Below are positions 5,691-22,116 of a DNA stretch of 64,000 nt, in pieces (the stretch's first letter is position 1; each line of letters begins with the position of its first letter). Position numbers and translations under genes: made by a program. Source of the stretch: Candidatus Methanomethylophilaceae archaeon (GTDB taxonomy: Archaea; Thermoplasmatota; Thermoplasmata; Methanomassiliicoccales; Methanomethylophilaceae); the NCBI GenBank assembly GCA_050950505.1, contig JBMNHS010000001.1, positions 640,001 through 704,000 of the forward strand, written 5' to 3'. The notes beneath the pieces are model-generated. The model was given only the letters and a program-made list of their open reading frames with translations. It ran no database searches and had not been told where the DNA came from.

Positions 5691-8600
5691 ATGGAAAGGT
5701 TGGATAAATTAGGACTCGGGATATGGTTCGTATCACTGTTGCTCGTATCGGCAATGGTAGTGCTGGACGGCACAGACGAAGATTCGGACCCGGAAGATCC
5801 CATCGAATATCCGGTCGTCGGAGGCAACGGAGGCATATGGGACAGACCCTTTGATGAATTCATTGTAACTATAAAGGCGGATTGTTCAAAATTCACGGGC
5901 TTAAAAATCAACGGATTTCCGGTTGATGAATCCAATTATACCATATCGTCAGGAAGCGCAGTAATCACCCTGAAACCCGATTATCTCCGGACGCTCAGTG
6001 ACGGGACGCATTCTTTGGAATTTTTGTTCAATGACGGAAACGCATCCATGACTTTGACGGTATCCGTCGAGGCTAAAATATTGAAAATCGAGGAACTTGA
6101 ATCGCTCCTCGCCGATTACGACAAAGACGATTACAGCGAAGAGGACTGGACGTCTCTGGTTGATTTCATAACCGCGGCGAAACTGGAAATCGTAAATCTC
6201 GAAGACGTATCGGAAGTGGAAACATTCGACATCGGTAATGTAAAGACCGAATGCGACGACGTAAGAACATTGGCGGAAATAAAGGAATCCTTTTTGGACG
6301 AGTTGCAGAACAGGATTGACGGGCTGAACGGAACCGATGGTTTCAACATCACTTTGAACGGCGAAGATCTGACGGTGGAATCGGAAAATACCGCGGATGT
6401 TCCGGACATTCTTGATGCAATATCGGATTTGGCCGACATATTGGAGAATCTTTTCGGTACGAATGCCAAGCTGACCGTCAACGGCAAAGATTTTATTCTG
6501 GGCGATGTGAACCTTACAGAACTGGCCGAGGCACTTCTTGAAGATTCGGACGACGGTCTTCCGGACGGAAAAGAAATCGACGCCGAATACGCAGTATCCG
6601 TCCGATATGAAAACGTCAATATCGGTCTCAATGGCATTCTGAGTCTTTACGCCATTTGGAACATCAACCAGTACACCATAACATTTGACACCGACGGAGG
6701 TTCTTCCGTCGACTCCATCAAACAGGATTACGGCACGTCGGTGAAGGCTCCGGCAGGCCCGACCAGAACTGGATACTCCTTCGCGGGCTGGAACCCGGCG
6801 ATTCCGGAAACCATGCCGGCGGAGAACATCACGATAACCGCACAATGGTCGGTCAACCAATACACCATAACCTTCGATTCCGCAGGAGGAACCGACGTCG
6901 ATCCCATCAAACAGGATTACGGCACGTCGGTGAAGGCTCCGGCAGACCCGACCAGAACTGGATACACCTTCGCGGGCTGGAACCCGGCGATTCCGGAAAC
7001 CATGCCGGCGGAGAACATCACGATAACCGCAGAATGGTCGATCAACCAATACACCATAACCTTCGATTCCGCAGGAGGAACCGACGTCGATCCCATCAAA
7101 CAGGATTACGGCACGTCGGTGACGGCTCCGGCAGACCCGACCAGAACGGGATACACCTTCGTGGAATGGGATACGGAAATACCGGCAAAGATGCCCGCGA
7201 CGGACATGACCGTAACCGCAGTCTGGAAAATTAACCAATATACCATAACCTTCGATAACAACGGAGGCGCCGGAACGATACCTGCGGTTGATAAGGACTT
7301 CGAAGAGACCGTCACTGTCCCGGCCTACGGATTCACCAAGATTGGATATACTCAGATCGGCTGGAACACCGCCGCCGACGGCTCGGGAACGTCTTACGAA
7401 AAGGACGGAACCTTCGACATGCCCGCAGACGACATCACACTGTATGCCGTCTGGAAAATCAACCAATACACCATAACCTTCGATTCCGCAGGAGGAACCG
7501 ACGTCGACTCCATCGAACAGGATTACGGCACGTCGGTGACGGCTCCGGCAGACCCGACCAGAACGGGATACACCTTCGTGGAATGGGATACGGAAATACC
7601 GGCAAAGATGCCCGCGACGGACATGACCGTAACCGCAGTCTGGAAAATTAACCAATATACCATAACCTTCGATAACAACGGAGGCGCCGGAACGATACCT
7701 GCGGTTGATAAGGACTTCGAAGAGACCGTCACTGTCCCGGCCTACGGATTCACCAAGATTGGATATACTCAGATCGGCTGGAACACCGCCGCCGACGGCT
7801 CGGGAACGTCTTACGAAAAGGACGGAACCTTCGACATGCCCGCAGACGACATCACACTGTATGCCGTCTGGAAAATCAACCGGTACACCATAACCTTCGA
7901 TTCCGCAGGAGGAACCGACGTCGATCCCATCAAACAGGATTACGGCACGTCGGTGACGGCTCCGGCAGACCCGACCAGAACGGGATACACCTTCGTGGAA
8001 TGGGATACGGAAATACCGGCAAAGATGCCCGCGACGGACATGACCGTAACCGCAGTCTGGAAAATTAACCAATATACCATAACCTTCGATAACAACGGAG
8101 GCGCCGGAACGATACCTGCGGTTGATAAGGACTTCGAAGAGACCGTCACTGTCCCGGCCTACGGATTCACCAAGATTGGATATACTCAGATCGGCTGGAA
8201 CACCGCCGCCGACGGCTCGGGAACGTCTTACGAAAAGGACGGAACCTTCGACATGCCCGCAGACGACATCACACTGTATGCCGTCTGGAAAATCAACCGG
8301 TACACCATAACCTTCGATTCCGCAGGAGGAACCGACGTCGACTCCATCGAACAGGATTACGGCACGTCGGTGACGGCTCCGGCAGACCCGACCAGAACGG
8401 GATACACCTTCGTGGAATGGGATACGGAAATACCGGCAAAGATGCCCGCGACGGACATGACCGTAACCGCAGTCTGGAAAATTAACCAATATACCATAAC
8501 CTTCGATAACAACGGAGGCGCCGGAACGATACCTGCGGTTGATAAGGACTTCGAAGAGACCGTCACTGTCCCGGCCTACGGATTCACCAAGATTGGATAT

Positions 8601-11600
8601 ACTCAGATCGGCTGGAACACCGCCGCCGACGGCTCGGGAACGTCTTACGAAAAGGACGGAACCTTCGACATGCCCGCAGACGACATCACACTGTATGCCG
8701 TCTGGAAAATCAACCAATACACCATAACCTTCGATTCCGCAGGAGGAACCGACGTCGACTCCATCGAACAGGATTACGACACGTCGGTGACGGCTCCGGC
8801 AGACCCGACCAGAACGGGATACACCTTCGTGGAATGGGATACGGAAATACCGGCAAAGATGCCCGCGACGGACATGACCGTAACCGCAGTCTGGAAAATT
8901 AACCAATATACCATAACCTTCGATAACAACGGAGGCGCCGGAACGATACCTGCGGTTGATAAGGACTTCGAAGAGACCGTCACTGTCCCGGCCTACGGAT
9001 TCACCAAGATTGGATATACTCAGATCGGCTGGAACACCGCCGCCGACGGCTCGGGAACGTCTTACGAAAAGGACGGAACCTTCGACATGCCCGCAGACGA
9101 CATCACACTGTATGCCGTCTGGAAAATCAACCGGTACACCATAACCTTCGATTCCGCAGGAGGAACCGACGTCGATCCCATCAAACAGGATTACGGCACG
9201 TCGGTGACGGCTCCGGCAGACCCGACCAGAACGGGATACACCTTCGTGGAATGGGATACGGAAATACCGGCAAAGATGCCCGCGACGGACATGACCGTAA
9301 CCGCAGTCTGGAAAATTAACCAATATACCATAACCTTCGATAACAACGGAGGCGCCGGAACGATACCTGCGGTTGATAAGGACTTCGAAGAGACCGTCAC
9401 TGTCCCGGCCTACGGATTCACCAAGATTGGATATACTCAGATCGGCTGGAACACCGCCGCCGACGGCTCGGGAACGTCTTACGAAAAGGACGGAACCTTC
9501 GACATGCCCGCAGACGACATCACACTGTATGCCGTCTGGAAAATCAACCGGTACACCATAACCTTCGATTCCGCAGGAGGAACCGACGTCGACTCCATCG
9601 AACAGGATTACGGCACGTCGGTGACGGCTCCGGCAGACCCGACCAGAACGGGATACACCTTCGTGGAATGGGATACGGAAATACCGGCAAAGATGCCCGC
9701 GACGGACATGACCGTAACCGCAGTCTGGAAAATTAACCAATATACCATAACCTTCGATAACAACGGAGGCGCCGGAACGATACCTGCGGTTGATAAGGAC
9801 TTCGAAGAGACCGTCACTGTCCCGGCCTACGGATTCACCAAGATTGGATATACTCAGATCGGCTGGAACACCGCCGCCGACGGCTCGGGAACGTCTTACG
9901 AAAAGGACGGAACCTTCGACATGCCCGCAGACGACATCACACTGTATGCCGTCTGGAAAATCAACCGGTACACCATAACCTTCGATTCCGCAGGAGGAAC
10001 CGACGTCGACTCCATCGAACAGGATTACGGCACGTCGGTGACGGCTCCGGCAGACCCGACCAGAACGGGATACACCTTCGTGGAATGGGATACGGAAATA
10101 CCGGCAAAGATGCCCGCGACGGACATGACCGTAACCGCAGTCTGGAAAATTAACCAATATACCATAACCTTCGATAACAACGGAGGCGCCGGAACGATAC
10201 CTGCGGTTGATAAGGACTTCGAAGAGACCGTCACTGTCCCGGCCTACGGATTCACCAAGATTGGATATACTCAGATCGGCTGGAACACCGCCGCCGACGG
10301 CTCGGGAACGTCTTACGAAAAGGACGGAACCTTCGACATGCCCGCAGACGACATCACACTGTATGCCGTCTGGAAAATCAACCAATACACCATAACCTTC
10401 GATTCCGCAGGAGGAACCGACGTCGACTCCATCGAACAGGATTACGACACGTCGGTGACGGCTCCGGCAGACCCGACCAGAGAAGGATTTGTTTTCATGG
10501 GATGGAATCAGACGGTACCTGAAATCATGCCCGCTGAGAACTTGGAGCTCCTTGCTATTTGGGAATATCCGATTGTCGGCGGTAAAGAAGGTATGTGGAA
10601 CAAACCCCTTAATGAATTCACTGTAACCGTGGAAGCGGATTATTCGAAATTCACAGGTCTGAAAATCGATGGAAATCCGGTCGATGAATCAAACTATTCC
10701 GTAGTATCCGGAAGTACCATAGTCACACTCAACCTCGATTATCTCTGGACACTTGGCGACGGGGAGTACGACATAGATATTTTATTCGATGATGGAAACG
10801 CGTCCATGATTTTGACGGTATTCGCAGATGCTAAAATCTTGAAGATTAAAGAACTTGACACACTTCTCGCCAAATACGATGAAAATGATTACGGGGAAAT
10901 CTACTGGACCGCTTTGTTAGAGTATGTAATGTCTGCGAAGGAAGAAATCTCAAATCTTGATGATATTGAGAAAGTGGAAAACTATGATACCAATGCCGTA
11001 GAGGGTAATTGTGACGACGTAAAGACTTTGGCGGAACTCAAAGGATCTTTTTTGGCTGCGTTGCAGGACGAGATAACCATACTGAATGGAACCGACGGCA
11101 TCCACGTTGCCTTGGTCGATGAAAACATAACTGTCAAGATTAAAGACAATGTATCTATTTCGGTGGTTTTTAATGCGGCATCTGAGATGGTCAACGCATT
11201 AAAGAACATCGTCGGTAACGACAGCACCTTGACAATCAACGGACAGGAATTCACACTTTACGATGATGGGTTGCTCCCGGCTCTGGTTACCGCAATTCTT
11301 AACGAAACGACACCCGAAGAATTCCTGGACAAAGGAGATCCCGTGTCCGTTGGTTATGCCGCCAATATTGCGTACGAAGATGCAAACATAACTCTCGACG
11401 GTTGCTTGAACTTTAAAGCAGTCGGAACAAGAGAGATGCTGTTGATAACACTGCAGACCAAAATAGACGAGCTGAACAAAACCGAAGGCATCAACGTTAT
11501 TTTGAATGTTGAAGATGCGGCGGTGGACATAGCGGTGGAGTTTGACGACAACGTACCGATTCCCGTCGTCCTTAATGCGGCATCCAATCTGGTTGAAATA

Positions 11601-17600: not shown

Positions 17601-20600
17601 ATATACACAATATCATTCGTTGTTGAAAATGGAAACACAATAGCGGATATATACAATCTTCAGAAAGATGACGTTGTTACTCTCGAGAATCCCTCCAGGG
17701 AAGGTTATGAATTCACGGGATGGTATATCGATTCAGAAGGAGAAGAAGTCACAGGGAGCAATATATGGACTTTTGTCAATAAAGCAATAAACAATGTCAT
17801 AACTCTGACGGCGGTATTTGAGCCTTGCAAATATACCATAACCTTTGATTCTGCGGGAGGATCCACTGTTGATTCAATAACCCAGGACTACATGTCCAAA
17901 GTGAACGCCCCTGGCTATCCTGTCAAAACAGGTTATAATTTCGTTCATTGGAAAGATTCAGACGGAAACGAGGTAATCTTCCCCACAGCCATGCCTCTGG
18001 GCGGCATGAAACTTACTGCTGTCTGGTCAATCAACCAATACACCATAACCTTTGACACCGACGGAGGCTCCACAGTCGATTCGATAACCCAGGATTACGG
18101 CACGACAATCGATTCTCTCAATGACCCGACAAAGGAAGGATACACCTTTGCAGGATGGTACCCTATCGTGCCGGCAACCATGCCCGCGAATAACTTTACG
18201 ATAACAGCCTTATGGACCGTCAACCAATACACTATAGAGCTCAATCCCGCAGATGGATTCGTTATCGAAGATGGTGATGGATCTTATACTGTCAAAGGCA
18301 GTTATACCGACAACAGTATAGTAAAAGACGTTATAAATGAAATTCTGAGTGTAAGCATTCATTGCAACGATATCGACATATCAGATGTTTTCGATATCAG
18401 TTATTATGACATGAGCGGTAATGAAATCTTTGTTCTGGACTTATCCAAGGGCGGGACGACATTCATGATTCGGTTGAAGGCAACCCCGGATTCGAACGAA
18501 CACAGTTCATTCGGATGTTGGGTGATTTTCAAATACGGCTCGGTAACAATCGGCAAAGAAAGTACTGATTACTTAACCATCGAGGATGCTTTGGAACAAG
18601 CGAGTTCCGACCAGACGATAATCGTCAAATACAACACATCCTTTGCCGATGAGGATGTAGCTCTTCAGGTTTATGGCAAGACTGTATTTGAAGTGGGAAG
18701 CGGAGTTACATTGTTGTTGCCTTATGACGGTAATCTAAGAAGTGATTTCACCGATGCAAAATTAGATGCAGAAGCAGGGGAAGCGACAACACCTTCCAAA
18801 CGTGATGTTGCCTATGTAAAATTGAACGTACCCGAATCGATTTCTCTTGATGTTTCCGGAACACTTACCGTAAATGCGAAAAGAACACACAGTTCCACGG
18901 CTTACCAGAACATTGTATCAGGTAAAAATTATTCAGAATTAATACTGAATAGTGGCAGTAGGTTAAACATCGAACAATATGGTGTCCTTAACGCCATTGG
19001 TTTTATTTACGGAGACGGTCACATCAAAGCATCAGGGGGAGCAACCGTGCTCGAGACCATGCTCATAAGTAGTTTTAGGGGAGGGTCCGCATCACTTAGT
19101 TTAGGACTTGGCGGAAAAGTGTTTCCATTTGAACAATTCACTATTATAAATATAGAGTCTGATTTGATAATCGAGGAGGATGCCGTGTATAAAGCGCATA
19201 TATTCGTTTATGCAAGTAGTAAGTACACCGGTTCAGATGTGGATTTGATAGGCAACGGCGCCGATAGCATGTTATGTCTTTCCGAGGGACACATATTAAA
19301 AAAGTTTGATGCCGCAACCGGGAATTTGACGCTTGAGGTGGAAGGCACATGCAATTTACAAGATATTAATGCCAACGGTTTCTCTTCCAGCGGTCTTAAT
19401 CTACCCTTTGATGGCAGATGGCATATCGTTGTTAAGAGTGGCAGCGTTCTCAATATAAATTCTGAAGTCAGCTTACTGCCCGGTGCTTCTGTAGTGGTGG
19501 AAGCGGATTCGGTAGTCAATATCAATGGCGGTTTGATCGTGTTCAATCCGTATGAGTACATATATGCGGATAACAAAACATATAATGAATTCCCTACGCC
19601 CAATGCTTCACATTGGTATCGGATACAGCCCACATTAGGATATAAGAGCGACACGTCTGCCAAATTAGAGGTTTATGGTCAGCTCAATGTGAACAAAGAC
19701 GGATACATAGCAGGCAAAGTAGACGTAATGGCAGACGACGTTCTGAACATAGAAGAAGGTGCTGAAACTTCCAAGTATATTTGGTATGTAGGGGAAGTAA
19801 GTACTGTCTTCGAAAGAGCAGTAAAGTTATGGCTGGATGAAACCTATACCATAAGTGTTACCGTTGATAATCCTACTACAAAGGTAGATGAGACATTTTC
19901 CGCGGTTGTTACCGCTTTAGTAAAAAGCAAGTATGGTACACCCATTGCCAATAAGTCTGTTTCTTTCAGATTGCCCGGTGACGATACGGTATATTACGCC
20001 ACTACAGATGGCAAGGGTTATGCAAAAATAACCCTCGAAGTAACCCCATCAGAGAGTGGGTATTGCATCATTCGTGTAGATGTTGACGATAGTTTTGCTG
20101 AGGGTATTATAGAAGTAACGAAGTCCTCGGGTGGTGGCGGTAGTTGTTTATCACCAGACACACTCATAACTTTAGCCGATGGGACTCAAAAGCCCGTCGA
20201 GGAACTTACCGGAGACGAACTTCTGCTGGTTTGGAATATGAATACCGGTACATTTGATGTCGCGCCCATCATATTCGTAGATTCCGATCCTCACGCAGAG
20301 TATGAAATCATTCAGGTGAATTTCTCTGACGGAACGTATGTAAAAGTCATATACGAACACGGGTTCTGGGACTTCGATCTGAACCGGTACGTGTACATAA
20401 ACGACGACTGTCCGCAACAGTACATAGGACACTGGTTTAACAAACAAACCACGGACGCGGACGGAAATTTCGCGTGGACAAAGGTTCAGCTTGTTGACGT
20501 CGTGATTTATACGGAGTACACGACCGCATGGAGTCCGGTCACCGCCGAACATTTGTGCTATTACACAAACGGGATGCTGTCTATGCCGGGCGGCATCGCG

Positions 20601-20852
20601 GGTCTGTTCAACATCTTTGAAGTCAATCCCGAAACGATGGAAATCGATCAGGAAGCCTATCTGGCGGATATAGCGGAATACGGACTTTTCACCTATGAGG
20701 AATTTTCTGAGATTCTCTTTGTGCCCGAAGAAGTATTCGACATATTCCAGGCAAAATATTTCAAGATTGCAATAGGAAAGGGATTGATCGATATGGACAG
20801 ACTGGTTAAACTGGTGGAACGGTACGGCGGCATGCTGGGCATGGAACTCTGA
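5691..20852 (+). CDS. Giant (5053 aa) secreted adhesin-like surface protein: signal/TM, X2-like Ig and helical modules, >20 InlB B-repeat (Listeria-Bacteroides) domains, MBG/Ig-like repeats, beta-helix-like region, Big-like Ig, C-terminal Hedgehog-type Hint domain
   Basis: N-terminal hydrophobic stretch LGLGIWFVSLLLVSAMVVL; repeated YTITFD..GG...P.DPTRTGYTF..W...MPA.D.T.TA.W; repeated TVTITGKGNY.G; GGGGS-CLSPDTLITLADG Hint start at 20145. Confidence 0.93.
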   Translation: MERLDKLGLGIWFVSLLLVSAMVVLDGTDEDSDPEDPIEYPVVGGNGGIWDRPFDEFIVTIKADCSKFTGLKINGFPVDESNYTISSGSAVITLKPDYLRTLSDGTHSLEFLFNDGNASMTLTVSVEAKILKIEELESLLADYDKDDYSEEDWTSLVDFITAAKLEIVNLEDVSEVETFDIGNVKTECDDVRTLAEIKESFLDELQNRIDGLNGTDGFNITLNGEDLTVESENTADVPDILDAISDLADILENLFGTNAKLTVNGKDFILGDVNLTELAEALLEDSDDGLPDGKEIDAEYAVSVRYENVNIGLNGILSLYAIWNINQYTITFDTDGGSSVDSIKQDYGTSVKAPAGPTRTGYSFAGWNPAIPETMPAENITITAQWSVNQYTITFDSAGGTDVDPIKQDYGTSVKAPADPTRTGYTFAGWNPAIPETMPAENITITAEWSINQYTITFDSAGGTDVDPIKQDYGTSVTAPADPTRTGYTFVEWDTEIPAKMPATDMTVTAVWKINQYTITFDNNGGAGTIPAVDKDFEETVTVPAYGFTKIGYTQIGWNTAADGSGTSYEKDGTFDMPADDITLYAVWKINQYTITFDSAGGTDVDSIEQDYGTSVTAPADPTRTGYTFVEWDTEIPAKMPATDMTVTAVWKINQYTITFDNNGGAGTIPAVDKDFEETVTVPAYGFTKIGYTQIGWNTAADGSGTSYEKDGTFDMPADDITLYAVWKINRYTITFDSAGGTDVDPIKQDYGTSVTAPADPTRTGYTFVEWDTEIPAKMPATDMTVTAVWKINQYTITFDNNGGAGTIPAVDKDFEETVTVPAYGFTKIGYTQIGWNTAADGSGTSYEKDGTFDMPADDITLYAVWKINRYTITFDSAGGTDVDSIEQDYGTSVTAPADPTRTGYTFVEWDTEIPAKMPATDMTVTAVWKINQYTITFDNNGGAGTIPAVDKDFEETVTVPAYGFTKIGYTQIGWNTAADGSGTSYEKDGTFDMPADDITLYAVWKINQYTITFDSAGGTDVDSIEQDYDTSVTAPADPTRTGYTFVEWDTEIPAKMPATDMTVTAVWKINQYTITFDNNGGAGTIPAVDKDFEETVTVPAYGFTKIGYTQIGWNTAADGSGTSYEKDGTFDMPADDITLYAVWKINRYTITFDSAGGTDVDPIKQDYGTSVTAPADPTRTGYTFVEWDTEIPAKMPATDMTVTAVWKINQYTITFDNNGGAGTIPAVDKDFEETVTVPAYGFTKIGYTQIGWNTAADGSGTSYEKDGTFDMPADDITLYAVWKINRYTITFDSAGGTDVDSIEQDYGTSVTAPADPTRTGYTFVEWDTEIPAKMPATDMTVTAVWKINQYTITFDNNGGAGTIPAVDKDFEETVTVPAYGFTKIGYTQIGWNTAADGSGTSYEKDGTFDMPADDITLYAVWKINRYTITFDSAGGTDVDSIEQDYGTSVTAPADPTRTGYTFVEWDTEIPAKMPATDMTVTAVWKINQYTITFDNNGGAGTIPAVDKDFEETVTVPAYGFTKIGYTQIGWNTAADGSGTSYEKDGTFDMPADDITLYAVWKINQYTITFDSAGGTDVDSIEQDYDTSVTAPADPTREGFVFMGWNQTVPEIMPAENLELLAIWEYPIVGGKEGMWNKPLNEFTVTVEADYSKFTGLKIDGNPVDESNYSVVSGSTIVTLNLDYLWTLGDGEYDIDILFDDGNASMILTVFADAKILKIKELDTLLAKYDENDYGEIYWTALLEYVMSAKEEISNLDDIEKVENYDTNAVEGNCDDVKTLAELKGSFLAALQDEITILNGTDGIHVALVDENITVKIKDNVSISVVFNAASEMVNALKNIVGNDSTLTINGQEFTLYDDGLLPALVTAILNETTPEEFLDKGDPVSVGYAANIAYEDANITLDGCLNFKAVGTREMLLITLQTKIDELNKTEGINVILNVEDAAVDIAVEFDDNVPIPVVLNAASNLVEILKKIVDPEESTLKLGSSDKTFTLLDEGLLPALVVALLADTTPEEFLLNKLEVSTDYIASLLHKDEYIPLEGKLSFKVIETTCEVIFRDYNGNVLKEETVIYREGATPPNNPDNKKGYRFIGWDTSYDCILTDLVITAQYEICQYTVTFYTDGGSAVDSITEDYDTSVEGPDNPVRGGYIFYGWYNSEGEEVTFPFNMPVGGLNLTAMWKIGISVPVGKELTYNGANQLGADGGTGYTLETGKNQTNVGDYTVTATLNDGYLWVIPGENGGDMYSIEPQVISWSIVKTKLTVKADDVTVIFGNEPVYTVTYIGLVGDDSESALGGKLTFNTGYDADSNVYKETYVITPSGLTSPNYDIEFISGTLTVNKIKIDVPAAISDLIYNGSEQTGVLEGEGYTLTGNYKGTDAGNYVATVTLVNGYIWIIPGENGGENTYTADPQEINWSIGQKNIAGAVVTLDGTSLVYTGFAIKPGVTSVTLDGKILVAGTEYTVSHGENINVVTGGSVVVTGEGNYTGTVTATFVITKEKLTLPAENTTLFIYTGKEQTYDISGFDPDTMGIENNTRTEAGFQTVIVSIKDKANYEWADETDDDVKFTFTISPKELDISEEFGLVAVDRVYNGNDAEFIFVFMDRVLDYTLLVNTDYTVTVTGVNGIRDVGTVTVTVTSVDGSNYSVSATKEINITPKIIELDLTGENTSKIYDGKVAVFDFEFNVNYPIYTLKENTDYTIEFLRGSYDTTDFLNVGTITVNIKPVDGSNYSVSGTMSFTILKAELTATYAGETVEYGTTPGLFVTVTGFVNGENETAAGYAAPSLINTNVNAGKYQLAPSGGEADNYTFKYVEGQLEITRVKLDKPTADPTEFVYTGNVQTYNPIGFVESTMGIENNTRTEAGSQTVTVFIKDKVNYEWADGTNVCVAFESFNILKADFSDFEVNIIVDDEERVYDGTAKTPDVTVKIDSKELEKDRDYTVSYDNNVNAGEAAKVIITGIGNFKGFTSEVFIISPKDISVTGASITGKYTFVGEAITPNPVFTDTFVTENDYSATYDDPINAGTVTVTITGKGNYTGNTTVTFTIMKKTVTVTPNAGLSKIYGDADPELTYTLDDEDALPFIKEGTVLSRVDGKNVGTYAILLGTLELCGTDNYVLEFTVGVTFEIIPKPLTEGMFVIDSQTYTGSVLTPIIISDIDCNEYTVADINPVGAGDYVVSISAVTDGNYSGSVTVKYTIEKAKLTKPVEDETVFVYSGSEQIYAPKGFDTGTMNILGNKMTYVGTQDVTVSIKNKDNYEWIDGTDAGVIFTFTIKEKIFDFSAAETSVSDTKYTGLSITFDFDGKFVDSTIDEGYTLLEGKDYVVEYTDNKNVGTATITITGKGNYEGAVIVKFKITPKEITVTPKSGQTVEYTGYAPDVKFDFPESFGTFEDFTGTLDLAKDGQPVTVYNVGEYTVVLGDLKSTDPNYELVLATGTVTFEITPKKIIATPAAGQSAEYGTGFSLEFSLSETGFTDYGGVLGLEKDNSPVTVYNVGQYVIVIGTLASTDDNYMLILAESPVIFEIFKAELIKPAKGTTEFIYTGEEQTYDISGFNPDTMDIAGNKMTDAGSQTVIVSIKDKTNYQWADKTEGDVTFTFTIGERNISDVTITIDPNANLTYTGLVIEPGITVTLDGNPFNTSNYSVSYANNINAGTATVKITAKGTNYDGTATKDFVISKAKLTATYAGESVEYGTIPGLVVTVTGFVNNENAGNAMGYNAPRLTNSNVNVGKYQLTPSDGAANNYSFDYATGTLSIIKKKVNVLIGTGQTAEYTGAAPAINYELSETVDTTVTGTLSIGEVYNVGIYNILIGTLDAGSNYELVRPETPVTFEIIPKNISGATVGAIPDQTYTGSAIIPDLVVKDGSKTLTAGTDYEVSFAGGVDNTNVGNVAVTVTGIGNYKGTVDGVTFSIIQKNISGVNVTVTFTDGVYSVTAMDGDRTLEEDVDYEVETAGNPLVKITVKGKGNYTGEVSFEIYTISFVVENGNTIADIYNLQKDDVVTLENPSREGYEFTGWYIDSEGEEVTGSNIWTFVNKAINNVITLTAVFEPCKYTITFDSAGGSTVDSITQDYMSKVNAPGYPVKTGYNFVHWKDSDGNEVIFPTAMPLGGMKLTAVWSINQYTITFDTDGGSTVDSITQDYGTTIDSLNDPTKEGYTFAGWYPIVPATMPANNFTITALWTVNQYTIELNPADGFVIEDGDGSYTVKGSYTDNSIVKDVINEILSVSIHCNDIDISDVFDISYYDMSGNEIFVLDLSKGGTTFMIRLKATPDSNEHSSFGCWVIFKYGSVTIGKESTDYLTIEDALEQASSDQTIIVKYNTSFADEDVALQVYGKTVFEVGSGVTLLLPYDGNLRSDFTDAKLDAEAGEATTPSKRDVAYVKLNVPESISLDVSGTLTVNAKRTHSSTAYQNIVSGKNYSELILNSGSRLNIEQYGVLNAIGFIYGDGHIKASGGATVLETMLISSFRGGSASLSLGLGGKVFPFEQFTIINIESDLIIEEDAVYKAHIFVYASSKYTGSDVDLIGNGADSMLCLSEGHILKKFDAATGNLTLEVEGTCNLQDINANGFSSSGLNLPFDGRWHIVVKSGSVLNINSEVSLLPGASVVVEADSVVNINGGLIVFNPYEYIYADNKTYNEFPTPNASHWYRIQPTLGYKSDTSAKLEVYGQLNVNKDGYIAGKVDVMADDVLNIEEGAETSKYIWYVGEVSTVFERAVKLWLDETYTISVTVDNPTTKVDETFSAVVTALVKSKYGTPIANKSVSFRLPGDDTVYYATTDGKGYAKITLEVTPSESGYCIIRVDVDDSFAEGIIEVTKSSGGGGSCLSPDTLITLADGTQKPVEELTGDELLLVWNMNTGTFDVAPIIFVDSDPHAEYEIIQVNFSDGTYVKVIYEHGFWDFDLNRYVYINDDCPQQYIGHWFNKQTTDADGNFAWTKVQLVDVVIYTEYTTAWSPVTAEHLCYYTNGMLSMPGGIAGLFNIFEVNPETMEIDQEAYLADIAEYGLFTYEEFSEILFVPEEVFDIFQAKYFKIAIGKGLIDMDRLVKLVERYGGMLGMEL
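6663..7040 (+). repeat. Two 189-bp (63-aa) B-repeat units preceding the main array
   Basis: Near-identical segments offset by 189 bp (e.g. 6728 vs 6917); AGWNPAIPETMPAENITITA occurs twice. Confidence 0.85.
7041..10481 (+). repeat. Intragenic tandem array: 8 full plus 1 partial 417-bp units (139 aa = two B-repeats each), nearly identical
   Basis: Unit starts 7041, 7458, ... 10377; identical off-frame ORFs recur every 417 bp (7288, 7705, 8122, 8539, 8956, 9373, 9790, 10207). Confidence 0.97.
20145..20585 (+). other. Hint (Hedgehog/intein) autoprocessing domain, Hog-like, within the giant protein
   Basis: C1-LSPDTLITLADGTQKPVEEL, IIFVD46, VIYEH72, WSPVT...NGMLS end; no terminal His-Asn. Confidence 0.88.
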
Positions 20853-21200: not shown

Positions 21201-21947
21201 TTATCCGAAATAATTCAGGTCCTCTTCGGAGGTTCTGCTGCTTTCGAGCTCGCGGACTTTTTGGTTCAGTTCGTCAATCATCGCCGAATGTCCGTCGAGT
21301 TCCTCGGTATCGACTTCGACTTCGAGTTTTTTGACCAAGATACCCATTACCGCGGCGGCACTTTTGTGGTCTATGAAATAACCCGCGGTCTCGCCCATTA
21401 GGCATATAGAATCTATTCCGTATATCTGACCCAGTGCAAGAAACATGGCGCTGGCACCGGCTATTCCGCCTTTGGGTTCGCCGGGTTCAAAAACAACCCC
21501 CAGCTTCTCGTAAGCCGCCTTTACCTCGACTCGGGAAACGGCACCGAGCACTCTCGGAGTTTCAATGATGGTTCCGGTTCCGTAACCTCCGAGGGTGACT
21601 ATTTCGGAAGGATCGTACTCCAGAAGGAGATTGATTATTTTCTTGCAGATTAGGAACTGACCCTCCGAAGAGGAACCCTGATAATCCCCCAGTATGAACA
21701 CCAAGTCGGTGTTTTCGGTCCGGGCGAACCAAAGTTCGTTCCTTGCGAAATCCGCAACGTTCTCTTCGTTTATCAGAACCTGCGGAGGAAAATCAGGGGA
21801 GTATATGGAAGCGAAACGTTTTGCATTCAGAGCGGACGCAAGGTAATCCGCGGCTATTTTGCCGACGTTGCCTATTCCCGGAAGTCCCTCGATGACAATG
21901 GGCTTTTCAAGTTCCGGTTTGGAATCATAAATCACGATACTTTCCAT
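21201..21947 (-). CDS. Proteasome assembly chaperone family protein (PAC2/PbaA-like)
   Basis: [34 protein letters not shown]; conserved position after nop10; likely start MESIV at 21947. Confidence 0.9.
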
Positions 21948-22116
21948 TTTCTCCGTACTCCTCTTCAATGGCCTTGCGGCGGTATGCGCCGTAACGGTCC
22001 TCCGGAGAGTATCTCGGAGGTGCCGGCGATGACGTGACGCCACCGCAGACGGGACACGTTTCTTTGAACGTATATCTTCCGCACCCGCAACGCATCATCC
22101 TGTTCATAAGCTTCAT
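21925..22116 (-). CDS. nop10: H/ACA RNP protein Nop10
   Basis: [17 protein letters not shown]...[17 protein letters not shown]. Confidence 0.93.

Follow-up and report, generated by a model that had tools for sequence, protein, structure and literature searches.

In a 64,000-nucleotide stretch of the genome of a Candidatus Methanomethylophilaceae archaeon (GenBank assembly GCA_050950505.1, contig JBMNHS010000001.1, positions 640,001 to 704,000 of the forward strand; the whole of this stretch is hereafter called the window), an open reading frame (ORF), P0001, encodes a giant adhesin-like protein that ends in a cassette composed of a Hint domain and a conserved tail. Judging from sequence comparisons, this cassette is probably a functional, N-terminally cleaving Hint unit of clostridial origin that caps the adhesin. 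We regard it, with comparable confidence, as a Hint domain in which the C-terminal Asn step is lost and to which an obligatory acidic, helical subdomain of 88 amino acids (aa) is joined. Members of the same cassette family end secreted adhesins, proteases and lipases of gut Clostridia. Hint domains are known from splicing inteins, from pre-toxin modules that release toxins and from the eukaryotic Hog domains that attach cholesterol; the cassette is a real feature of this known superfamily, and the C-terminal Hint-plus-tail variant that it represents is apparently undescribed. Its interest would lie in a Hog layout in prokaryotes, in which cleavage is confined to the N-terminal side, an unvarying tail closes the protein and the passengers, as we call the parts of the proteins that precede the cassette, can be exchanged.

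The cassette comprises residues 4819-5053, the last 235 residues of P0001, and starts with a Cys whose codon at window position 20145 corresponds to residue 4819, from (20145-5691)/3+1. A preliminary description of this DNA had claimed a C-terminal layout of a flexible linker followed by Cys, Asp and His, which is borne out by the translation, ...IIEVTKSSGGGGS-CLSPDTLITLADGTQKPVEEL...; the end of P0001 reads ...TKSSGGGGS-CLSPDTLITLADG... The Hint part terminates ...WSPVTAEHLCYYTNGMLS / ...EHLCYYTNGMLS, where L145-S146-M147-P148 stands in place of Val-His-Asn, and Ser146-Met147-Pro148 is conserved in the cassette family. As that description had stated, no intein-type His-Asn closes the Hint part; since Ser-Met-Pro is found instead and nothing follows the tail, only N-terminal cleavage would be possible. 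The tail, which ends ...IDMDRLVKLVERYGGMLGMEL, is made up of an extended PGG..LFNIFEV stretch and then about four short helices (the helix count was read from the sequence), and over 242 tails it has a mean net charge of -11.5, an isoelectric point of 4.1 and a grand average of hydropathy (GRAVY) of about 0. The same description was also right in that the protein has no C-terminal transmembrane (TM) helix, the last 60 aa peaking at 0.91 on the Kyte-Doolittle scale, and in that a terminal amphipathic helix is present, the last helix being moderately amphipathic (hydrophobic moment 0.52-0.54).

The decisive evidence for a Hint fold is a profile-profile comparison by hhalign, in which a profile of 24 cassettes aligned with 10 clostridial PT-HINT domains at 97.0% (E 8.4e-11) over 128 columns, with query positions 1-140 on template positions 1-132 of 142, covering blocks A to G. 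In this alignment EHLCYYTNGML overlies the PT-HINT motif ending ...VLVHN, and therefore the whole Hint fold appears to be present, which supports the Hint-type autoprocessing module proposed initially. The profile-profile comparisons covered PT-HINT and five archaeal mini-inteins, with no Hog profile among them, and the mini-inteins reached 44% over 21 columns only. The weaker matches of a Hint-only cassette profile include three known PT-HINT loci (one in genome G274 and two in G295; E 1.6e-7 to 8.7e-5). The commonest best Pfam match of the members is PF01079, the Hedgehog Hint family (5/13 in one scan and 6/9 in another), with E 5.9e-6 and 6.5e-6 for the best members, one of which spans residues 4-141, and a member of subfamily 2 matches Intein_splicing (E 4.2e-5, residues 10-139). 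The cassette query, P0002, matches PF01079 at E 0.0069 (16.4 bits, residues 1-72 on profile positions 13-84), a DnaB intein model at E 4e-4 and TIGR01445, the intein N-terminal region, at E 0.016; its matches in the PDB are 4o1r, a DnaB intein (E 0.044), and 1at0, the Drosophila Hedgehog autoprocessing domain, whose alignment (1-72:1-72) places D46 on D46 and H72 on H72 and is not significant alone (E 1.1). The ESM Atlas matches of homologue P0075 were all below 0.8, one of them a GLUG-motif cluster. As judged from the profile homology over blocks A, B, F and G, together with the Cys nucleophile and the block-B His, the cassette is a member of the Hint superfamily.

An exhaustive HMMER search over 50%-identity clusters returned 2,716 of them at E<=1e-3, of which 2,031 also pass E<=1e-10 and 1,266 pass E<=1e-30, and such a recurrence of the 235-aa unit is therefore more than chance. 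A word-indexed search retrieved 1,810 proteins in the length range 413-2,000 aa and a further 322 in the range 129-412 aa, whose identity is typically 60-67%, with 97-100% of the 235 residues covered. Gut and rumen metagenomes are rich in the family; named sources are Clostridia, Clostridiales and Lachnospiraceae metagenome-assembled genomes and one Acholeplasma laidlawii protein, and the carriers on genome contigs include Anaerovoracaceae, with the nearest bacterial copy (74% identity), Christensenella, Oscillospiraceae, Peptococcaceae and Acutalibacteraceae, while a related cassette is also found on a Methanomassiliicoccales contig. The passengers are mutually unrelated, including S8 and C1 peptidases, alpha/beta hydrolases, a peptidase M64 N-terminal domain, BspA leucine-rich repeats and Flg_new repeats, and since the passengers are generic, the function of the C-terminus should be generic as well. 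Among the 337 stored homologues, which were aligned at Cys1, 174 have a signal-peptide-like N-terminus, and the part upstream of Cys1 in these has a median length of 920 aa (range 47-2,844, signal peptide included). The protein ends within 6 residues of the query end in 228 of 241 homologues; the other 13 (e.g. P0018, P0034 and P0125) carry a C-terminal extension of 32-55 aa beyond the cassette, mostly rich in His, Asn and Gly with basic ends, most often ...RRRGR, two of them being short, hydrophobic and rich in aromatic residues. There is no model for the family in Pfam and NCBIfam. We found no description in the literature of a Hint-plus-tail cassette at the C-terminus of surface proteins from Clostridia or archaea, which, as the coverage was incomplete, is not proof of absence, and the architecture lists of PMC3482391 could contain it.

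C1 and H72 are invariant in 337/337 stored homologues, and without catalysis it would be difficult to account for a single Cys exactly at the start of the domain together with an invariant H72. In the close subfamily (242 rows), C1, E71 and H72 are present in all 242 sequences and D46 in 240; the replacement of Thr69 by Ile that had been remarked upon for the archaeal copy is found in 236, the others having Val (5) or Leu (1). The residue at position -1 varies (S 92, E 39, A 28, G 25, N 17 and others 40 among 241 homologues), and Ser/Gly-rich linkers before the cassette are common. A sister subfamily of 13 members with 34-40% identity, taken from a sample of 301 Clostridia genomes, retains C1 and H72 (13/13), the YIGH-F motif and the tail motif D..YGL(F/Y)T; it always has His48-Gly49, and H136 and N142 are replaced. 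Invariant in both subfamilies are C1, T6, G13, G35, F60, H72, F98 and L116 of the Hint part and D175, Y179, G180 and L181 of the tail. Position 48 (window 20286-20288) is Asp, Glu or His in all of the 242 close and 13 distant sequences, a pattern by which the acid/base role may more generally fall to position 48 than to 46.

Whole-cassette, tail-only and Hint-only profiles found the same 19 sites in the same 10 of the sampled Clostridia genomes (301 genomes, 300 for the Hint-only profile), the sites often being in tandem; the matches were strong (E<=1e-30 for the tail and E<=1e-55 for the Hint), followed by a wide gap and then weak matches only. The question of whether the tail alone always co-occurs with a Hint, which had been put forward as a check, is thus answered by 19/19 sites, with no tail lacking a Hint in these genomes. 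In the alignment of the tails of both subfamilies (A3), the mean column identity is 53%. When the Hint (alignment A4) and the tail (A3) were modelled as separate chains of a complex, the ipSAE values of 0.71, 0.69 and 0.59 (median 0.69), which express the confidence of a model built on two halves of one polypeptide from alignments of our own and are not a measurement, compared with a best of three of 0.00 for the controls; of 80 solved complexes, 58 come up to the ipSAE mark, as against 2 of 110 mismatched pairs. At least 77% of the contacts are common to the runs, with a partner pLDDT of at least 77 and a Hint chain pLDDT of 90-94. The modelled interface on the Hint consists of residues 1, 30, 32-35, 43-44, 46, 70-71, 75, 77, 80-82, 84, 99, 130, 132, 134-135, 137 and 147; as it includes residues 1, 46 and 70-71, the tail would contact the catalytic neighbourhood. 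The model thus supports the view that Hint and tail form one unit, with the tail predicted to pack beside the catalytic centre. The most conserved stretch of the tail (window 20667-20705, module residues 175-187) reads D175-x3-Y-G180-L-F-T-x-x-E186-F, and its Asp at position 1, Gly at 6, hydrophobic residue at 8 and Glu at 12 have the spacing of an EF-hand loop; one subfamily-2 member has a faint EF-hand_6 match (E 0.0075), which might be a mere lead for Ca2+ binding.

Several points weigh against reading the cassette as a working Hint unit. None of the scanned members reaches any Pfam gathering score, the best homologue having 26.5 bits against the cut-off of 29.7 for PF01079, and the searches of PDB sequences with P0002 and with profiles A1 and A2 gave no significant match (A1 found no chain at E<=10, and the best match of A2, at E 0.044, is an unrelated coat protein). 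The block-B Thr, which is described as assisting the acyl shift in inteins and Hedgehog (PMC4695875), is Ile or Val throughout the family, and the packing of the tail is, as said, a prediction.

According to established Hint chemistry (PMC4695875), the first step is an N-S acyl shift, which in the cassette would be expected at Ser4818-Cys4819. We propose that after export Cys4819 would attack the carbonyl of Ser4818, aided by His72, and that the resulting thioester could not be resolved through splicing or Asn cyclisation. Because neither of these routes is available, an external nucleophile would have to resolve the thioester, and the 4,818-aa passenger would thereby be detached from the cassette.

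The closest parallel in layout is Hedgehog. A Hog domain consists by definition of a Hint domain plus a sterol recognition region (SRR) or adduct recognition region (ARR) (PMC2362128), and the second step of Hedgehog processing is reported to need the C-terminal SRR of ~70 residues and the Hedgehog-specific Asp303, which corresponds to position 46 (PMC4695875). Like a Hog domain, the cassette lies at the C-terminus of a secreted protein, has a Cys1 nucleophile with His72 and, in the present copy, Asp46 in the same register, shows neither Asn cyclisation nor a C-extein, is closed by a conserved tail of 60-90 aa that directly follows the Hint and ends the protein, and tolerates arbitrary passengers, as is described for Hedgehog (PMC4695875). 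The Hog-like layout suggested at the outset (Cys at the N-terminus, a conserved tail at the end, and neither terminal Asn nor C-extein) is therefore recovered here. Unlike a Hog domain, the cassette is prokaryotic, scores 16-26 bits with PF01079 against the cut-off of 29.7, has Ile69 where the Thr of TXXH is expected, mostly lacks D46 in the sister subfamily, and carries an acidic tail where Hedgehog has a hydrophobic sterol-recognition region (PMC4695875). In short, the cassette has the architecture of Hog, and lies outside Hog by the PF01079 cut-off and by the Thr of TXXH.

The two likeliest readings of the cassette part at what becomes of the thioester. By analogy with Hog or with sortases, the tail might position a specific acceptor, to which the new C-terminus of the passenger is ligated in cis; we give this somewhat less than an even chance. 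Sortase/LPXTG, archaeosortase/PGF-CTERM and the C-terminal domain/PorU system of type IX secretion are examples of C-terminal signals that are removed through an acyl-(thio)ester, with the protein passed to an envelope nucleophile. These sorting signals are functional analogues only: like the cassette, they are C-terminal on diverse secreted proteins, but they depend on a separate transpeptidase, whereas the thioester of the cassette is predicted to form in cis and its transfer is putative, and there is no sequence relationship. If the passenger is indeed transferred, the acceptor would more plausibly be something that gut Clostridia have, or a generic group (the hydroxyl of a glycan, for example, or an amine), than an archaeal lipid. 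Transfer would mean that gut microbes have a novel chemistry of covalent anchoring or adhesion, and it would provide a ready-made self-ligating protein tag.

The transfer part of the proposal has the following against it. The tail is not hydrophobic but acidic; among its neighbours in the window, the archaeal gene has none that would make an acceptor or act as a partner; and 1-3 copies per genome are fewer than would be expected of a general sorting signal. A sortase was found in 2 of the 10 cassette-bearing genomes versus 143 of the 290 others, a shortfall that is not significant (Fisher p 0.105, the genomes not being independent). Finally, the conservation of D46, on which the Hog-like proposal had been made to depend, stands in the close subfamily, with 326 of the 337 stored homologues, and fails in the sister subfamily, where Asp46 occurs in 1 of 13 members, the others having Val, Ile, Met, Arg or Phe.

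A bolder form of the transfer idea would see in the cassette the prokaryotic counterpart of Hog, in which a cis thioester and a tail that hands the passenger to an acceptor constitute a sortase-independent, enzyme-free ligation across gut Clostridia, portable into a wall-less methanogen; we put this forward tentatively and regard it as rather unlikely. The cassette could also represent a bacterial unit ancestral to Hog, since its N-terminal half matches the register of the Hedgehog Hint including D46. Aravind and colleagues have proposed that the HINT of Hedgehog derives from the HINT of bacterial polymorphic toxins (PMC3417536), and a bacterial family of Hint plus a fixed tail is relevant to that idea.

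Nearly as likely as acceptor-directed transfer is that the same core chemistry ends in release only, the thioester being hydrolysed, or thiolysed by sulfide or other thiols of the gut. The cassette would then be a removable aid to export or folding, or would serve to tether the passenger non-covalently until shedding. Cleavage at the N-terminus with water or thiols by a Hint lacking the Asn step is established for inteins and Hedgehog (PMC4695875), the acidic tail resembles a soluble domain and not a lipid binder, and D46 is dispensable in the sister subfamily; the lack of an adjoining acceptor-related gene and the persistence of the cassette after its move into an organism with a different envelope point the same way. 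However, self-removal alone has no obvious benefit across unrelated passengers, Hint and tail are under strong constraint and strictly coupled, and the tail contacts with C1 and D46 seen in the model would be unneeded for simple self-removal. Even if hydrolysis were the only outcome, the cassette would still amount to an unrecognised maturation step of many large surface proteins.

That the Hint fold has been kept as a structural or binding cap, with cleavage lost and the cassette serving as a distal binding module, would fit the replacement of the block-B Thr by Ile and the absence of any member at the Pfam cut-off. We nevertheless consider it improbable, as the Cys at the start and H72 are invariant (337/337 plus 13/13) and flexible Ser/Gly linkers precede the cassette.

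The origin of the archaeal copy bears on what the cassette was made for. Of 151 genomes sampled from the archaeon's order, only one, the source genome (G000) itself, carries the cassette, by which horizontal transfer is indicated, and none of 7 other genomes of the same genus has it. The 518 passenger residues preceding the cassette have no match in 6/6 genomes of the genus and just two, at 26-27%, in 64 genomes of the family. One Anaerovoracaceae protein matches P0001 in the cassette (74% identity) and also in the ~840 aa before it (34%), and therefore at least the C-terminal ~1,080 aa are of common origin with bacterial proteins, the cassette being the better conserved part compared with the adjoining passenger. 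With pN (nonsynonymous divergence) at 0.13-0.18 and pS (synonymous divergence) at 0.80-0.92, the synonymous sites are saturated, so that purifying selection has acted and the transfer was not very recent; the GC content of the gene (0.43-0.54) is unremarkable within the window and gives no evidence for or against transfer. On the sequence distribution, from bacteria to the archaeon would be the parsimonious direction, the family being broad and deep in Clostridia versus a single archaeal species cluster. The methanogen is likely to have received the cassette from gut Clostridia by horizontal transfer, and at least the C-terminal portion of the adhesin along with it.

This history disfavours the specific target that had been proposed for the cassette, i.e. 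an archaeal self-lipidation system by which the adhesin is passed to archaeol, another isoprenoid ether lipid or a polyprenol chosen by the tail. The Hog-like layout with D46 and H72 in Hedgehog register agrees with such a system, as does the lack of a C-terminal TM helix in contrast to the three native Flg_new paralogues of the genome. But the cassette is of bacterial origin and, being widespread in gut Clostridia and rare in the archaeal order, has therefore evolved for a bacterial envelope, and the archaeal tail is 60-69% identical to clostridial tails and has thus not been reshaped for an archaeal lipid; in addition, the tail is acidic with a GRAVY of about 0, and D46 is not universal. We therefore hold lipidation of this kind to be quite improbable, and the idea of an archaeal system is not supported.

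PT-HINT (PF07591), which we take to be roughly equivalent to A-type bacterial intein-like (BIL) domains, is the best profile-profile match of those run, the only strong one, and comes from the same bacterial class. In polymorphic toxins PT-HINT directly precedes C-terminal toxin domains (PMC3482391), and by this parallel the 88-aa tail, once freed, could act as a toxin against which a downstream gene gives immunity. PT-HINT, however, keeps Val-His-Asn, followed by variable toxin domains with immunity genes (PMC3482391), whereas the cassette lacks the His-Asn needed for a cut on the tail side, its tail is constant and not polymorphic (53% mean column identity, 19/19 coupled), and no immunity gene, or indeed any same-strand gene in the window, follows the ORF. 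PF07591 was moreover never reported by hmmscan for members (none at E<=10 in 13 members, none at E<=1 in 9 more, and no match in genome G152 with its three cassettes). A polymorphic-toxin role is accordingly very improbable. The chance that the cassette is a true intein or a splicing BIL domain is negligible: it shares with inteins (PF14890, TIGR01445) the pattern of blocks A and B, the chemistry of the N-S acyl shift and the weak matches given above (TIGR01445, the DnaB model and 4o1r), but no host protein surrounds it, it has neither C-terminal splicing residues nor a homing endonuclease, and it aligned with the mini-inteins over those few columns only. The intein candidate was rejected, there being no C-extein, terminal His-Asn or +1 nucleophile and a stop codon after the tail. 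By its profile, then, the cassette appears homologous to PT-HINT yet is without that family's defining His-Asn, variable toxin and immunity gene, and is not an intein.

The giant ORF and the parts of the cassette are located in Table 1. The maximum 19-aa Kyte-Doolittle mean of P0001, 2.49, starts at residue 7 and marks its sole strongly hydrophobic stretch. Its passenger contains, by Pfam, Flg_new domains (Listeria-Bacteroides repeats; E 1e-235), with 21 stretches in the first half of P0001, as well as MBG_2 (E 7e-23) and CBM_X2 (E 7.6e-12). The weak Big_1-type domain (27.3 bits against a cut-off of 34.9) occupies residues 2221-2289 of the second half of P0001, and Big_1 is likewise annotated in precomputed records of the closest homologues, P0003-P0009. 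The source genome (1.33 Mb, 99.6% complete) encodes McrA, from which the organism, a gut archaeon, is a methanogen. Listeria-Bacteroides repeat proteins are reported as a trait of host-associated Methanomassiliicoccales (PMC7883539). The three other large Flg_new-positive ORFs of this genome all have a C-terminal TM helix followed by a basic tail, which the giant ORF lacks. Such an end appears to be the native anchoring style of the organism, and the foreign cassette therefore occupies the position of the native anchor; for the archaeon this would mean that the terminus of a bacterial adhesin has been imported and stands in for its TM anchor.

Table 1. Location of the giant ORF, its C-terminal cassette and related features (window coordinates unless a contig is given)
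Feature	Position	Strand	Basis or remark
Giant adhesin-like ORF P0001	5691..20852	+	single ORF, 5,053 aa
N-terminal hydrophobic segment, residues 7-25	5709..5765	+	signal peptide or signal anchor; top 19-aa Kyte-Doolittle window
Weak Big_1-type Ig-like domain directly before the linker	19851..20057	+	PF02369 E 3.9e-6
Flexible linker KSSGGGGS, residues 4811-4818	20121..20144	+	Ser4818 is position -1 of the predicted scissile bond
Hint domain, module residues 1-147	20145..20585	+	hhalign, PF01079 and 1at0 alignments
Cys1	20145-20147	+	
Asp46 (in IIFVD)	20280-20282	+	
Ile69, replacing block-B Thr	20349-20351	+	
His72 (in VIYEH)	20358-20360	+	
Hint closing motif H136-LCYYTNGML-S146	20550-20582	+	then Met-Pro, not His-Asn
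Acidic, aromatic-rich conserved tail, 88 aa, module residues 148-235	20586..20849	+	tail-only profile, alignment A3
Stop codon of P0001	20850..20852	+	no further gene on + strand; opposite-strand PAC2 next
Three other Flg_new ORFs, outside the window	C1:265801-271038, C1:969040-973539, C1:261327-264155		C-terminal TM helix and basic tail

The flanks of the giant gene are housekeeping genes unrelated to it. Upstream lie genes for Usp, DUF134, a NifX-like protein, two MinD/Fer4 proteins and a metallo-beta-lactamase; the next gene downstream is the PAC2-family gene at 21201-22043, beyond which Nop10, aIF2-alpha, S27e and L44e were read from the ORF translations. In the first third of the giant ORF (window 6000-10400), Flg_new/Flg_new_2 units are arranged as nearly identical tandem pairs, and these repeats generate an antisense ORF of 1,478 aa (5949..10385, - strand) that is very likely spurious.

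Some members of the family deserve mention on their own account. P0353 (278 aa, on a 157-kb contig) is a minimal member, with a signal peptide, ~26 residues, Cys1 and the full cassette. P0249 (251 aa; WP_284544738.1), from a 1.46-Mb contig of Acholeplasma laidlawii, a cultured wall-less mollicute, has the full module at 64% identity, with Tyr at position 46, Ser for Cys138, 17 residues before Cys1 and no signal peptide; it may be a truncated gene call, because its 90% cluster also has a member of 1,246 aa. Subfamily-2 genes in two Clostridia genomes (L022:3099-5329 and L027:6923-9174, in G363 and G415) form tandem arrays of 2-3 that adjoin regulators of capsule or exopolysaccharide, i.e. CpsB/CapC (E 9e-67), a Wzz chain-length determinant and a CpsD-like P-loop protein. 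This arrangement probably belongs to one lineage, as the flanks of the carriers are syntenic and the genomes look related. On an Oscillospiraceae contig of G152, likewise a single-lineage case, two of the three cassette genes present, L025:6453-7772 (-) and L025:17820-18893 (+), are each followed by a gene of 357-439 aa whose product bears a methylation motif of prepilin type at its N-terminus (PF07963, E 2.5e-4 in one case), and the N-terminus of the cassette protein in L029 is itself similar to the prepilin type.

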